Positions 2,986-56,501 of a stretch of DNA of 64,000 nucleotides are shown here, one piece after another. Position 1 is the first letter of the stretch. Every line of letters starts with the position of its first letter. Position numbers and translations under genes: made by a program. Under the pieces are notes generated by a model. It was given only the letters and a program-made list of their open reading frames with translations, had not been told where the DNA came from and made no database searches. Source of the stretch: a virus; the IMG/VR virus record IMGVR_UViG_3300021399_000006, positions 78,128-142,127 of that record; one strand, written 5' to 3'.

Positions 2986-3190
2986 TATCTTCTTCTCCTT
3001 TTAATAAATAGAGTAATATATCTTTGGCATTATAATTAAAAATATGATAAGGATAAAAACTAAAAACATTATTAAAAATTTTACATTCATGTTTCCATTT
3101 ACATTTATCTTCTTCACATTTACCACCATTATAACATTCAATACACATAATTATAAGATTATAAGGACTCATTATTTTCCTCCATTCCAT
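2978..3190 (-). CDS. Small Cys-rich hypothetical protein
   Basis: 70-aa ORF with CIECYNGGKCEEDKCKWKHEC. Confidence 0.3.
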   Translation of the reverse strand: MEWRKIMSPYNLIIMCIECYNGGKCEEDKCKWKHECKIFNNVFSFYPYHIFNYNAKDILLYLLKGEEDNE

Positions 3191-6100
3191 ATCTTGCGGA
3201 AGCTAGTTCAATCCTTCTTCCATTTACATTCGTTATCAAATAAAGCTGGTGCCCGCCAGTACTTTTATATTTTTTAGCTACGAAAGTATCATCTCGTCTA
3301 TAACCTGTAACTAAAAGTTTATTACCACGAGTAAACCAACCTTTTTCTTTTACTTTTTTAACTCCTTCTTCATTCACTTCACTTATCTGTCTATTGAACA
3401 TTGCATAATAATCACGAGTAAATTTAACATTAACAGTTCCTGTTGGTGTTAAAAGTGTAACTATATGACGTGTATCATTTTTACCGATAACAGTTCCCGC
3501 AATCCTTTGTAACTTATAAATAGGAATTTGTTTTCCATTACGTTTGAAGAAACAATCTACTACGGGAGTTGAAGAAAGATTATTAAAATCTACGATACCA
3601 TAAAAATTATTATCAATATTTTTTAATTCATGGTCGTGATAATAGAAACATAATGATTTCATTTCCCAGAAAGAAATATTTCCTTCTGCATATTTATTCC
3701 ATTCTTCTTCAAAAAGTTTTAAATTTAATTGTTTTAAAACTTCTTGTTGATTAGACTGTAACCAGTTCCGCACTTTATCCATTACTTTTGAATAAATCTT
3801 ATCCCATACCTTTTGTTTTATTACAAAACAATTATTTATAATTTCAATATTCTCCATATCAAAATGGTCGGAATAAAAATTCATACTGTTTTGTTCGGGC
3901 ATTACATAATAATCTTGCCATTTCCTGGCTTTTAAAAATTTATTAAAATAATAAATAGTTTTCTCAAAATCTAAAGACTCTGGTAAAAGGTTATAGTTAA
4001 TAAGAGTTGCCATATTCTGAAGATTTAAACGGGTTTTAGGATTACTAGTTATAGATAAATAATAAACCATAGCCCAAGTACGTGGATCAATATTAAGAGA
4101 TTTTGCATCTTCTCTTGATAATTCATCAAAAGCACCAGCTTTAATTAAACTAATCATTGCCGTTTTATTTAACTTGCATCTATTCATAAAATCTTTAATA
4201 GATACGTATGGACGGTTTTGTTTAATCTGGTCAACAACAGATGCACCTACATTACTCAATGCCTTCATACCGAATAAGATTTGGTTATTTTCTACATCGG
4301 GTTTAAAACCATAATCTGATTTATTAATATCTACTAAACTAACTTTAATACCCGCATTAATAATTTCACCTAATGCTTTTGCAACCTTACCATAATCAGT
4401 CGCATTTTCTTTTTTCTTAATAGGAGTATCATCTTCATCATATTCAATATCATCTTCTTCTTCTTCAAGACTTCCGCTATTTACTACAAGACATGCGGCA
4501 TCCCAATAAATTGGACTCCAATGTGTAGCAATATAAGCAGTTTGAAAACCGATAAAGCTATAAGCTAAAGCGTGAATAATCGAAAAAGAATATCCCATCT
4601 GAGGACCGACGCCATTTTCCCACACATATTTCCCTAATTTTTCTGATGATGCTCGTTCTAGGATTTTTTGATGTAATTCTGGGATTTTACTCATTTGTTT
4701 TTTACCGACAATTTTTCTTGCGGCATTTGCTTCCGCCAAAGTAAAACCACAAATATTCTTATCCATAAGCATTAACATTAATTGTTCTTGTGAAGGTGGA
4801 ACTCCATATGAAGATTTAAAATATGGTTCAAGATAATCTCTTTCATTTGCTGTTAAACCAAATGTATACATTTCTTTATACCAAAGGTCAAGATTATTCT
4901 TATAACGGATATATTTTTCCATAGGTGTTTCCGCACCCTTTTCCGCTGTCATTAATCTCATAAGACCATTAGCATCTGTTAATTCAAGAATTGTTTTCGG
5001 TTTAATCTTTTTAGCGGCCTGACTACCAACTTCTGAATCAAACTGAAATACATTTATTACCGAACCATTTTGAATTGCATCCCATACATCTTTATCGTCT
5101 ATTGGTAAAACATTTGGATGGAAATATTTATCATACACAGGACGTAAATTAATTCCTGTATCTTCTATTATGCCATCTTCTTGTAAAAATCTAATTGCTT
5201 GAGCAAGTTTATCTTGAACTTCTGTAACCAGAAAGTCATATTTAACAAGACCTGCCGCTTCACAATCATGTAGATCATACTGTGTAATTATTTCTCCTTT
5301 TGGAGTTTTCATGAAACATCCAAATTCATATGGATCTTCATCGAAAAGAATTACACCAGAAGCATGACTACTACGCTTATTTACAAGACCAACAATACCA
5401 AAAATAATATCAAGAAGTCCTGGATATTCATTTACTTCTTTAACAAAAGCATGAACAGGTTCTCTATCTTTGTCTTTGTTGCCATTTATAACATCTTCAA
5501 GAGGCCATAAGAATCCTCTCTCTGAAGGAATTAATGATGCTATATATTGTGCTTCATCGTTATCAATACCATCTGGAAATTCTTCTGACCTATATCCGCG
5601 GCAGGCTGTAAGAACTGCTGACTTGGTTTGTTCTGTACCATATGTAGCTACTAAAGTACAACCTAGATTTTTTCGGGATAAATCATCTATATCAGGATTG
5701 AACCTACTGCCGCGCTCTTCTTTTATCTTTCTTACTATTGTTCCTTTTTTCGATGGACATATATCAATATCAATATCACCTAATTCAGTTCTTTCATCAT
5801 TCATATAACGAAAGAAAGGAAGGTTCCATTCAATTGGGTCAAGCTGAGTAATACCTAAAAGATAATGATTTAATGCGGCACATGATGAACCTCTCCCGGC
5901 ACCGACAAGACTTCCGCATTCCCATATCATATCAATATAATATTTTAGTGTAATAGGATATTTAAACATATTTGTTCCAAGTTTTTCTCCTATTACTTTT
6001 TTTACTCTTGCTTCTTCTTCAAGTTCATCCCAGTATTTTCTTAATTTATTTTCCATTAATGGTGAAAAATCCATTTGAGGATTCATTTTATCAATTTGAT

Positions 6101-7136
6101 TTGCACATTCATTTATCCAATATCTATCATAAATATTATCAGATAGATATAATTCATGTAAATTAGGATAAATTTTTTGTTCGTCAAACCAGTCAACATA
6201 CTGTTTAGGATAGTCTTTTACCGGTACGCTTGGAATAGTTTGATTATGAAGTAAATCATATATCTGAATTTTATCAAACATTTCCATACTATTAGCGCAC
6301 ATTTCTTCTATTAATTCGCCAATAGAAGGTTCAAGATTTTTTCTTAAATCATCTTTATCTTGGAGATATGCGTATTCATAAAAAGCATCTGTTTCTCTTT
6401 CTCCCCCTTTAGAATTAAGATATGCTTTATGAATATATCTATCTTCCTTTTTAAGATAATGGGCATCGTCTCCGATTACAATTTTTTTATCATATGAACG
6501 TGCAATTTGAACTAATTTTTTATTTGCAATAATTTGCTCTTTAGATGCTCCTGGAGCAACCTCAATATAAAAATCATTACCAAAAATTCTATCAACGAAA
6601 TCTATAAAATTAATGATTTGATTTTGTTTAATTATCACAGTCTCTTCATCTTCCATATGTCTAGCTTTTTCCATTTCTATAATACAGCTAGATAGTTCAC
6701 CGCCAAGACATGCAGACGTTGCTATAAGATGACCTGGATTCCGCATTACCACTTCTTCTAATTCACTCTTGAGAGTTGGTACACGTTCCATACCTCTATC
6801 CCAATAAGAGTTCATCCAAGCACGCGAAGATAATTGACGTAATTGTTTATGACCTTCCGCATCTTTAGCAATTAATATAAAGTGATAATACTTTATACCA
6901 TTTTGCCTTACATCTGTAAGATATATTTCATTACCTATTGCGATTTTAAAATTTGGGTTTTCTTTTTGAAGTTTACAAACACGAATAGATTGGGCAAGGG
7001 TTTCATGGTCTGTAATAGCCAATCCCGCAAGCCCAATCTCTTTTCCTCGTTTTACGAGGTCTGGTAATTTATTTATACAATCGAGAAGTCTAAAATTTGA
7101 CATCTCTGTATGACAATGTGGAACAAAACGTTGCAT
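3159..7136 (-). CDS. dnaE: DNA polymerase III alpha subunit-like replicative polymerase (DnaE family), 1325 aa, no TAG
   Basis: Uninterrupted 1325-aa ORF. N-terminal PHP domain (HCHTEMSNFRLLD, GLAGLAITDHETL), then polymerase core motifs (GSSCAALNHYLLGIT) and a C-terminal OB region. A perfect sigma70-like promoter and an AAGAGAGG RBS lie upstream. Confidence 0.85.
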   Translation of the reverse strand: MQRFVPHCHTEMSNFRLLDCINKLPDLVKRGKEIGLAGLAITDHETLAQSIRVCKLQKENPNFKIAIGNEIYLTDVRQNGIKYYHFILIAKDAEGHKQLRQLSSRAWMNSYWDRGMERVPTLKSELEEVVMRNPGHLIATSACLGGELSSCIIEMEKARHMEDEETVIIKQNQIINFIDFVDRIFGNDFYIEVAPGASKEQIIANKKLVQIARSYDKKIVIGDDAHYLKKEDRYIHKAYLNSKGGERETDAFYEYAYLQDKDDLRKNLEPSIGELIEEMCANSMEMFDKIQIYDLLHNQTIPSVPVKDYPKQYVDWFDEQKIYPNLHELYLSDNIYDRYWINECANQIDKMNPQMDFSPLMENKLRKYWDELEEEARVKKVIGEKLGTNMFKYPITLKYYIDMIWECGSLVGAGRGSSCAALNHYLLGITQLDPIEWNLPFFRYMNDERTELGDIDIDICPSKKGTIVRKIKEERGSRFNPDIDDLSRKNLGCTLVATYGTEQTKSAVLTACRGYRSEEFPDGIDNDEAQYIASLIPSERGFLWPLEDVINGNKDKDREPVHAFVKEVNEYPGLLDIIFGIVGLVNKRSSHASGVILFDEDPYEFGCFMKTPKGEIITQYDLHDCEAAGLVKYDFLVTEVQDKLAQAIRFLQEDGIIEDTGINLRPVYDKYFHPNVLPIDDKDVWDAIQNGSVINVFQFDSEVGSQAAKKIKPKTILELTDANGLMRLMTAEKGAETPMEKYIRYKNNLDLWYKEMYTFGLTANERDYLEPYFKSSYGVPPSQEQLMLMLMDKNICGFTLAEANAARKIVGKKQMSKIPELHQKILERASSEKLGKYVWENGVGPQMGYSFSIIHALAYSFIGFQTAYIATHWSPIYWDAACLVVNSGSLEEEEDDIEYDEDDTPIKKKENATDYGKVAKALGEIINAGIKVSLVDINKSDYGFKPDVENNQILFGMKALSNVGASVVDQIKQNRPYVSIKDFMNRCKLNKTAMISLIKAGAFDELSREDAKSLNIDPRTWAMVYYLSITSNPKTRLNLQNMATLINYNLLPESLDFEKTIYYFNKFLKARKWQDYYVMPEQNSMNFYSDHFDMENIEIINNCFVIKQKVWDKIYSKVMDKVRNWLQSNQQEVLKQLNLKLFEEEWNKYAEGNISFWEMKSLCFYYHDHELKNIDNNFYGIVDFNNLSSTPVVDCFFKRNGKQIPIYKLQRIAGTVIGKNDTRHIVTLLTPTGTVNVKFTRDYYAMFNRQISEVNEEGVKKVKEKGWFTRGNKLLVTGYRRDDTFVAKKYKSTGGHQLYLITNVNGRRIELASARYGMEENNESL

Positions 7137-56202: not shown

Positions 56203-56219
56203 TTTAGGAGGAAATAATT

Positions 56220-56501
56220 ATGACTCAATACTATATCATGGAACTTCAAAAATATGCGGACGGTTCTTACGGTGACATTAAACATATAGCGTATGACGAA
56301 GACCCCACAAGAGCAAGACTTAAAGGCGAAAGTAAGTTTTATGAAATTTTATCGGCAGCCGCTGTAAGTGAATTGCCAGTACATGCCGCTATCATGTTTA
56401 CATCTGAGGGTGTACCTGTGATGAATCAGAGATACGTACATGCGATTCCGCAGGTTGAACCTGAAACACCTGAAGAAGATGTAACACCTGAAGGTGAGTA
56501 A
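56220..56501 (+). CDS. Small protein, paralogue of 51374..51622
   Basis: See the alignment given above. Confidence 0.4.
   Translation: MTQYYIMELQKYADGSYGDIKHIAYDEDPTRARLKGESKFYEILSAAAVSELPVHAAIMFTSEGVPVMNQRYVHAIPQVEPETPEEDVTPEGE

Follow-up and report, generated by a model that had tools for sequence, protein, structure and literature searches.

Apparent avoidance of a recoded TAG codon in replication genes, a probably exchanged TAG-free fibre block and a likely glutamate assignment in a gut or rumen phage

Why should a phage that uses TAG freely as a sense codon carry whole groups of genes in which the codon never occurs? The question is raised by a 64-kb stretch (31.7% guanine plus cytosine, GC) of virus record IMGVR_UViG_3300021399_000006, hereafter the window, for which an initial annotation had described a strongly non-uniform TAG density, with none in the replisome core or in a tail-fibre module. 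TAG is a sense codon here, given that none of 62 genes is terminated by it (43 end in TAA and 19 in TGA) and that open reading frames (ORFs) of at least 150 amino acids (aa) cover 61.6 kb with TAG as sense, compared with 43.3 kb under the standard code and 50.2 kb with TGA as sense. Our best explanation for the whole, to which we give a probability of roughly 70%, is that TAG would be translated as glutamate (Glu, E) by a suppressor tRNA of the phage's own, that selection would keep the replisome genes free of the codon, and that the fibre genes would lack it through exchange of cassettes.

The unevenness persists once gene boundaries are corrected. With TAG as sense, 138 in-frame TAGs fall within 26 ORFs, and the other 40 ORFs, with 12,278 codons between them, lack the codon entirely, against an expectation of about 209 at the rate of the TAG-bearing genes (17 per 1000 codons); heterogeneity among ORFs is highly significant (chi2 = 414, df 65, p = 3e-52). 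For nine genes the lack of TAG is significant even singly under Bonferroni correction, namely those for DNA polymerase III (PolIII), primase, LigA, both topoisomerase subunits, RNA ligase, the MVP-like protein, the 1287-aa fibre protein and the vWA protein, although in small genes the absence is uninformative when taken singly. Out-of-frame TAG is equally common in both sets (7.3/5.4 per kb in TAG-free and 8.7/5.9 per kb in TAG-bearing genes), so that its absence is a property of the reading frame and not of local composition. Moreover, NrdD, the RecJ-like exonuclease, the AAA_24 ATPase, the GH25 endolysin and the GIY-YIG fusion give full-length family matches only when TAG is read through. 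Clustering of TAG towards N-termini, which would have meant early abortion of translation, is not significant (Fisher p = 0.53, Kolmogorov-Smirnov p = 0.35). Two candidate TAG-bearing ORFs were rejected as mis-calls: 27699-27926 (3 TAG), which spans a terminator and a promoter, and 51302-51622 (2 TAG), the true start of which is at 51374. The gene annotations first given agree with Pfam and PHROGs, and both the zero counts reported for named genes and the TAG-rich genes interleaved with them are found again in the following features. Genes occupy the minus strand from 36,130 down to 1 and the plus strand over 36,285-60,127; beyond that, from 60,243 on, they return to the minus strand.

213-2165, minus strand: NrdD, 4 TAG
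2165-2401, minus strand: glutaredoxin/thioredoxin-like gene, 2 TAG
2416-2985, minus strand: guanylate-kinase-like gene, 3 TAG
3159-7136, minus strand: YorL/SPbeta-type DNA polymerase III alpha, 1325 aa, 103 Glu codons and 0 TAG (P = 7e-12)
7195..10180, minus strand: TAG-free block that includes a Dda-like SF1 helicase (8016-9191)
10307..12103, minus strand: RecJ-like DHH/OB exonuclease, 10 TAG
12187..16209, minus strand: block of primase, DnaB-like helicase and small TAG-free genes
12187-13341, minus strand: primase, 0 TAG
13937-15475, minus strand: DnaB-like helicase, 1 TAG
16294..17280, minus strand: Sak4-like AAA_24 recombination ATPase, 4 TAG
18451-19311, minus strand: 286-aa gene (phrog_6721), 0 TAG in the window
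19311..20267, minus strand: fusion of a membrane-anchored coiled coil and a GIY-YIG nuclease, 21 TAG (66 per 1000 codons)
20318..27615, minus strand: TAG-free block of LigA, topoisomerase subunits and small genes
20900-22912, minus strand: LigA, 0 TAG
23106-25442, minus strand: GyrA/ParC-like topoisomerase subunit, 0 TAG
25720-27615, minus strand: GyrB-like topoisomerase subunit, 0 TAG
27804..27839, minus strand: terminator read from the sequence, a hairpin with a T-run directly past the endolysin stop codon
27847-29319, minus strand: GH25+CHAP+GW endolysin, 8 TAG, in a lysis cassette at 27847..29570
29352-29570, minus strand: holin (phrog_443) directly upstream of the endolysin, 0 TAG and 5 Glu codons
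29626..36130, minus strand: TAG-free block that includes a 185-aa protein
30175-31222, minus strand: phosphoesterase and AAA_33 kinase (Pnkp-like), 0 TAG
31269-32516, minus strand: RNA ligase, 0 TAG
33032-35533, minus strand: MVP-shoulder/vault-repeat (MVP-like) protein, 0 TAG
36285..45839, plus strand: tail and baseplate genes (961, 690, 255, 862, 100 and 273 aa), 60 TAG, which are 22% of Glu codons
45863..51360, plus strand: left fibre cassette (831, 570 and 407 aa), 0 TAG, GC at third codon positions (GC3) 0.14-0.16
51374..56179, plus strand: right, GC-rich fibre cassette (82, 125, 1287 and 97 aa), 0 TAG, GC about 42%, GC3 0.32-0.50; it holds a small gene (51374-51622) and the collagen-repeat/phosphoesterase fibre protein of 1287 aa
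56220..60127, plus strand: small post-fibre genes, TAG-free over 56220-56501 and with 17 TAG in seven genes over 56644-60127
60243-61751, minus strand: DUF2828/DUF7788 vWA protein, 0 TAG, with two further TAG-free ORFs within 60243..63601
62768-63175, minus strand: first four tRNA genes of an array that runs on past the right end

Relatives were collected from IMG/VR as loci around the PolIII, vWA and topoisomerase genes, which gave about 208 related loci; some follow the standard code, and others read either TGA or TAG as sense. TAG-recoded relatives are called E-type or Q-type according to whether their TAG was typed as Glu or as glutamine (Gln, Q). Among distinct orthologs from E-type relatives, at 48-85% identity and not phylogenetically independent of one another, TAG is absent from 23 of 23 PolIII genes, from all 16 Dda-like helicases and all 16 primases, and from every LigA (13/13), TopoB (14/14) and vWA (6/6) gene, with TopoA (21/22) and DnaB (19/22) close behind. 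In contrast, TAG-free copies number 0 of 14 for the RecJ-like gene (13 TAG per 1000 codons), 0 of 20 for the GIY-YIG fusion (52 per 1000), 0 of 5 for the endolysin, 2 of 20 for the Sak4-like gene and 4 of 12 for NrdD. TAG sites of the RecJ-like gene occupy 45 columns over 14 orthologs, 19 of them singletons, and taken with the ortholog counts this means that the codon comes and goes readily in certain genes without ever becoming fixed in the genes beside them. Q-type relatives have the same gene pattern (27 TAG per 1000 codons in the GIY-YIG fusion, 6.5 in the RecJ-like gene, 0.4 in PolIII and 0 in TopoA). Because this gene-by-gene pattern recurs in dozens of TAG-recoded relatives, the replisome-core genes and several others appear to be kept TAG-free by selection. 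The 286-aa gene at 18451-19311, TAG-free in the window, carries TAG in 12 of 17 E-type orthologs, and TAG-free status is therefore not fixed for all genes of the replication region.

The initial annotation had proposed that genes translated before a suppressor is available avoid TAG. The ortholog pattern is as expected under such selection and agrees with the model of Borges et al. (2021/2022), in which early genes follow the standard code and later genes are gated by the suppressor; the timing step itself would run as follows. TAG-free genes would need unmodified host translation, with release factor 1 active, before the suppressor accumulates, and the genes for recombination, nucleotide metabolism, the GIY-YIG fusion, the endolysin, the baseplate and small late proteins, which tolerate or favour TAG, would be made only after the switch. 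The endolysin, with its 8 TAGs, lies at the 3' end of a TAG-free gene run with a terminator after it, a placement that would fit translational gating of lysis, as had been suggested; the other half of the lysis cassette does not bear on that suggestion, since the TAG-free holin has only five Glu codons. Promoters add little. A perfect TTGACA-17-TGaTATAAT site with an extended -10 element lies at 7198..7170(-), 34 nt upstream of the PolIII start and about 6 nt from where it had been placed, but the second of the two sigma70 promoters that had been called perfect, at 27678..27650(-) upstream of the topoisomerase operon, is a promoter-like TTGCAA-17-TGcTATAAT that matches at 10/12 positions plus the extended -10. 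Sigma70-like matches are not enriched in the window (121 vs 122 expected; 7 vs 7.5 at 11/12 or better). Strong sites are seen ahead of the RecJ-like gene as well as ahead of PolIII, the topoisomerase operon and the 185-aa gene at 36,130; scores of at least 11, counting the TG, are found upstream of three TAG-free genes and one TAG-rich gene, which is too few for a test. The proposed tie between TAG class and promoter type is accordingly not supported, with one perfect site only and a strong one before a TAG-rich gene.

Several points weigh against the explanation as a whole. The RecJ-like gene, TAG-rich as it is, has its own promoter of 11/12 plus TG at 12172..12144, the holin of the lysis cassette is TAG-free (not significantly so), and the pattern is weaker in TGA-recoded relatives, where PolIII is TGA-free in 9 of 12. 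The 'early' and 'late' classes are assigned from gene function alone, and the MVP-like, vWA and RNA-repair genes are TAG-free genes with no assigned timing. In addition, the analysis covers all but about 46 kb of a 124.8-kb genome. The MVP-like and vWA genes also prefer CAG over CAA (26:1 and 11:1), the reverse of the remaining genome, and their GC3 is raised (0.24 and 0.34), which suggests foreign origin or a special expression regime for these two genes.

Avoidance of TAG might reflect robustness instead of timing: if suppression is incomplete, proteins that are long, essential or needed in exact doses would avoid the codon throughout infection. The strictly TAG-free genes are indeed long essential enzymes, and with timing classes drawn from gene function and promoters that do not separate those classes, such a reading is not easily set apart from the first. 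Structural proteins of equal length, however, are TAG-rich (22 TAGs in that of 961 aa, 11 in that of 862 aa and 13 in that of 690 aa), so that a full-length product needs very efficient read-through, and small, non-essential-looking genes in the replisome blocks are TAG-free too. We therefore regard robustness as an unlikely cause, and selection on the replisome genes, most likely through the timing of their translation, as the better account.

TAG is missing, as had been reported, from all of the roughly 3,400 codons of the fibre block (45863-56501), the start of which lies at 45863. Its right half had also been described as higher in GC, and that half is compositionally foreign: GC reaches 42% at 52-56 kb vs about 30% elsewhere, and GC3 is 0.32-0.50 vs 0.14-0.19 elsewhere. 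The left half (45863-51360) has a native GC3 of 0.14-0.16, and its slightly higher GC comes from second codon positions, that is, from amino-acid composition; high GC is thus no mark of the whole block. The suggested import from a non-recoded phage is supported by the closest homolog. The 831-aa gene (45863-48358) shares 94% protein and 92% DNA identity with a gene on IMGVR_UViG_3300001520_000029 (L234), and the DNA homology starts at 45847, in the gap past the last TAG-bearing gene, which is the TAG-free boundary. The tail module of that contig is a different one, and its 23 kb of tail genes are free of in-frame TAG; its standard-code status rests on these 23 kb, not on a whole genome, a further reservation about the explanation. 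Other homologs of the 831-aa protein, at 65-73% identity, all lie in loci without in-frame TAG, one of them a 114-kb contig that is TAG-free over 42.7 kb and in which the homologs of NrdD and of the gene at 59618-60127 also lack TAG. More distant Q-type homologs (37-38% identity) carry 7 and 2 TAGs, so that fibre genes are not intrinsically TAG-free. A second phage, L101 (ERZ12302821 NODE_566), is 99.8% identical over window positions 56179-64000 and unrelated to the left of 56179, where it has an alternative TAG-free cassette (genes of 762, 476, 360 and >369 aa; 34-40% GC). Two further E-type relatives have TAG-free, GC-rich genes at the fibre position, and one other (L110) has a GC-rich gene with 4 TAGs there. 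In the 1287-aa protein the N-terminal ~430 residues are conserved (67-86%) in six loci and the remainder differs; tblastn of the whole protein gave no match. The 862-aa baseplate protein, which is TAG-rich, likewise gave no match when viral contigs were scanned with it, and diverged E-type tail regions were not recovered in this way.

On these comparisons, the fibre block would owe its lack of TAG to recent exchange of host-range cassettes with standard-code relatives, and it is apparently a mosaic of at least two exchange units. A TAG-free cassette would work under any code and a TAG-bearing one only in a recoded phage, which would make the code difference a one-way valve; given this one-way compatibility, fast-moving cassettes in a recoded phage should be young and TAG-free. 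Selection offers another account of the block, which could be kept TAG-free irrespective of when it arrived, for example if the fibres are produced early or have to remain exchangeable. In keeping with this, the alternative cassettes of the E-type phages L101, L106 and L109 are TAG-free as well, and the GC3 of the left half is fully native. The codon is nevertheless admitted in fibre genes of L110 (E-type) and of Q-type homologs, the homology breakpoint with the TAG-free contig coincides with the TAG-free boundary, and a near-identical genome differs by its cassette only. For the fibre block we hence think selection doubtful and cassette exchange the better explanation. On the contig that shares the fibre gene (L234, positions 65-15661) there is, upstream of that gene, an ORF of 5,198 aa with no in-frame stop of any kind; it has homologs of 5,135 and 3,061 aa in two other contigs, and this giant tail protein is absent from the phage of the window.

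Which amino acid TAG encodes was addressed by comparison with orthologs in standard-code relatives. At window TAG columns these have 227 E vs about 20 Q among 485 aligned cells, and the conserved columns divide into 16 E and 1 Q. E is found in 23 of 25 standard-code orthologs at each of columns 311 and 472 of the RecJ-like protein, in 14/14 at column 47 of the Sak4-like protein and in 18/18 at column 49 of the guanylate-kinase-like protein; columns 47 and 126 of the Sak4-like protein are invariant or near-invariant Glu. A likelihood test, with substitution frequencies from the same alignments and each TAG column counted once, favours E for the window, 17.7 nats ahead of Q over 64 columns in 20 genes, and for nine relatives, where the lead is 101 nats. 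Applied to six further TAG-recoded loci of the family, the same test favours Q, with a lead of about 50 nats, and these Q-type loci are an internal positive control for the Glu assignment. Typing of all TAG loci gave 57 E-type, 16 Q-type and 21 unclear. Within the E-type clade, window TAG exchanges with GAA 198 times, GAG 31 times and CAA 33 times, and the TAGs of Q-type relatives stand mostly opposite window CAA. Composition points the same way: GAA and GAG make up 5.7% of codons in TAG-bearing genes vs 8.1% in TAG-free genes, which rises to 7.2% with TAG as Glu (TAG then being about 22% of Glu codons in those genes), whereas TAG as Gln would bring Gln to 5.3% vs 3.1% elsewhere and leave Glu still short. 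When the GH25 endolysin domain is aligned to PDB chains, its TAG positions fall in variable columns and do not indicate an amino acid.

None of the four tRNA genes in the window is a suppressor. A tRNA(CUA) gene does occur farther along the contig, at L100:4775-4847; it lies about 2.9 kb outside the right edge of the window, within an array of at least 23 tRNAs. L100 here denotes ENA contig ERZ12302851 NODE_124 (124,767 bp), to which the window is 100% identical over the aligned 13.8-kb overlap (window position = record position - 37,592). The suppressor has a C1-G72 pair, as in several tRNA-Glu genes of the family, whereas most family tRNA-Gln genes have a weak 1-72 pair, and its 19-nt D-arm is identical to that of a family tRNA-Glu(UUC). 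Isotype profiles were derived from tRNAs of the family, the anticodon being masked, and draw on 18-26 phage tRNAs only; on them the suppressor scores best as Glu (29.7 bits vs 25.2 for Gln), and the 4.5-bit margin is modest, both of which temper the assignment. Suppressors of clade relatives score 44.6, 34.8 and 27.5 on the Glu profile with clearer margins, and two suppressors of another lineage score best on the Gln profile. Variable-loop length, a tRNA-Glu hallmark, does not discriminate among these phage tRNAs, and plain pairwise tRNA identity was ambiguous for the window's suppressor; the isotype profiles took their place.

A route to such decoding can be outlined. Most Bacillota lack glutaminyl-tRNA synthetase (GlnRS), and their non-discriminating glutamyl-tRNA synthetase (GluRS) charges both tRNA-Glu and tRNA-Gln; an enzyme that accepts both cannot rely on anticodon position 36. 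Amidation by GatCAB is confined to tRNAs with a weak U1-A72 pair. The suppressor may derive from tRNA-Glu, since a change from tRNA-Glu(CUC), which several relatives encode, to CUA would retain C34 and U35 and could leave the tRNA chargeable with Glu, and the C1-G72 pair would block amidation by GatCAB, leaving Glu on the suppressor. A difficulty for this route is that GluRS recognition is normally impaired by anticodon changes. From the ortholog columns, the exchange with GAA, the Glu composition and the tRNA-Glu-like suppressor together, we conclude that TAG is very probably read as Glu in this phage.

The initial annotation had taken table 15, in which TAG is Gln, for granted. Under this ordinary code, which crAss-like and Lak phages use, Glu in orthologs would reflect GAG-to-TAG mutation followed by a tolerated Glu-to-Gln change, and E and Q do form a conservative pair; earlier phage studies give TAG to Gln only, the genome also encodes a tRNA-Gln(UUG), and the suppressor also reaches 25.2 bits on the Gln profile. 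Many TAG columns, however, are invariant Glu across 14-25 standard-code orthologs, the likelihood test that prefers E here returns Q for other members of the family, TAG exchanges with GAA six times as often as with CAA within the clade, the TAG-bearing genes would be rich in Gln and poor in Glu, and the C1-G72 pair is unlike that of most family tRNA-Gln genes. A Gln assignment is accordingly improbable. Least probable of all, and by our estimate scarcely credible, is that every TAG-free gene, the replisome included, is a recent standard-code import in which the absence of TAG marks recency only: members of the family with about 60% PolIII identity do differ in code (standard, TGA or TAG), and the fibre block does behave in this way, but the replisome tracks the recoded clade (in ranked identities, PolIII of the window is 64% identical to the nearest standard-code relative and 77-97% identical to E-type relatives), has a native GC3 of 0.15-0.19, and remains TAG-free in each of 13-23 diverged E-type orthologs, although TAG comes and goes in the genes next to it.

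Beyond this phage, it seems reasonably probable, though with less assurance than for the phage itself, that a large clade of gut or rumen phages (57 of 73 typable TAG loci) has reassigned TAG to Glu by means of tRNA-Glu-derived suppressors, with sister lineages that read TAG as Gln, read TGA as tryptophan (Trp) or keep the standard code, so that one family would hold four codes; the reassignment to Glu would be one so far unreported in viruses or bacteria. Some features of the tRNA arrays stand beside this. The suppressors at L100:4775-4847 and L105:4320-4396 occupy the same array position, between tRNA-Val and tRNA-Ser, and both are Glu-like with clearly different sequences; the two phages have PolIII proteins that are 92% identical, and the suppressor may have been replaced between them. 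In the array of E-type L106 (IMGVR_UViG_3300001487_000194) there is, besides, an opal suppressor tRNA (anticodon UCA), which hints at two suppressors or at a genome in transition between codes. At window 62924-62999(-) ARAGORN makes a tRNA-like call with an 8-nt anticodon loop ('gcat'), and the Rfam tRNA model scores below gathering in the identical L100:8753-8828; the element could be a degenerate tRNA or an unusual decoder. A ROOL RNA (Rfam RF03087, 276.7 bits, full length) lies in the array at L100:1740-2334, about 5.4-6 kb past the right end of the window and flanked by two tRNA-Leu genes, and co-occurs in one genome with the gene for an MVP/vault-repeat protein.

The phage is from gut or rumen, and its host is probably a member of the Bacillota, as is suggested by the hosts of phages with distant fibre-protein homologs (Blautia, Faecalimonas, Oscillospiraceae, Clostridium and Bacillus), by the YorL/SPbeta type of its PolIII and by the GH25+CHAP+GW architecture of the endolysin. 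The phage belongs to a large family with a PolIII of the YorL type. Megablast of 24 kb of the window against INPHARED gave no match, and the sole tblastn matches of PolIII are SPbeta-like phages at 38% identity. The sign of GC skew flips at both strand-switch regions (~36,130-36,285 and ~59,500-60,240); the first is a divergent promoter region with TTGACC-17-TATAAT at 36195..36167 and could adjoin a replication origin. In L037, L063, L064, L068 and L072-L074 the PolIII match extends over 5.1-5.2 kb, not 3.9 kb, which points to introns or inteins inserted into this early gene, a feature also reported from Agate phages.

The pattern in the window has close parallels. In recoded gut phages (crAss-like, Lak, Agate and other clades; Borges et al.), TAG is likewise sense and accompanied by the phage's own suppressor tRNA(CUA), the recoded codon is confined to structural and lysis genes and the like and is missing from replication genes, modules that use it are dispersed over the genome, and close relatives differ in code. 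The window departs from this in its TAG-free fibre cassettes and in its TAG-bearing RecJ-like, Sak4-like and NrdD genes. Since it otherwise fits the model of Borges et al., the uneven distribution of TAG is in that part already known. The Agate clade (Borges et al.), with genomes of ~127 kb from cattle, pig and tortoise guts that are mostly TGA-recoded or standard, two being TAG-recoded, resembles the present family in genome size (124.8 kb here), mixed codes, clean replication machinery and apparent PolIII insertions in relatives. The family may be the Agate clade; that clade is defined on terminase, a gene outside the window, and the likeness lies in genome size, hosts and mixed codes.

As regards the code itself, Borges et al. 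describe, among codes that differ from the host's in phages, only TAG to Gln and TGA to Trp, and argue that no other synthetases can be hijacked as easily as GlnRS and tryptophanyl-tRNA synthetase (TrpRS); in the present phage, the alignments place TAG at Glu. In the literature, table 15 is also used to annotate a group of 136-kb TAG-recoded phages, and the full text of open-access publications yielded no report of TAG to Glu in phages. Code 15 agrees with the present case in that TAG alone is reassigned and TAA and TGA stay stops, and differs in specifying Gln, whereas alignment, codon exchange and composition favour Glu. In the nuclear code of peritrich ciliates (NCBI table 30), both TAA and TAG are Glu. 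That code shares the change from stop to Glu, but TAA terminates 43 of 62 genes here, and the window belongs to a virus of bacteria, which would change its decoding within a host that uses the standard code. The fibre block resembles the mosaic exchange of tail-fibre cassettes in tailed phages, with its conserved N-terminal anchor, variable distal part and near-identical backbones; in the present case the exchange would cross a genetic-code boundary, and a code signature (no TAG) stands beside the compositional one. TAG-free fibre cassettes arising by exchange are absent from the text of the Borges preprint, in which the word 'recombination' does not occur. What goes beyond published work is the Glu assignment, the presence of E-type TAG, Q-type TAG, TGA-to-Trp and standard codes in one family, and the code signature of fibre exchange.

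The TAG-free genes shared among relatives, Q-type lineages included, strengthen the case for recoding as a translational timer. A clade that reads TAG as Glu, if confirmed, would break the rule that phages change TAG to Gln or TGA to Trp only, and the non-discriminating GluRS/GatCAB pathway of Gram-positive hosts would then be a second route to recoding and the phage a natural Glu-inserting amber suppressor system. In that case, table-15 gene calls would mistranslate about 1.7% of residues in TAG-bearing genes, and public protein databases would show Q for E. Finally, the difference in code may act as a one-way valve for gene flow in the family, through which standard-code cassettes would enter recoded phages and not the reverse.

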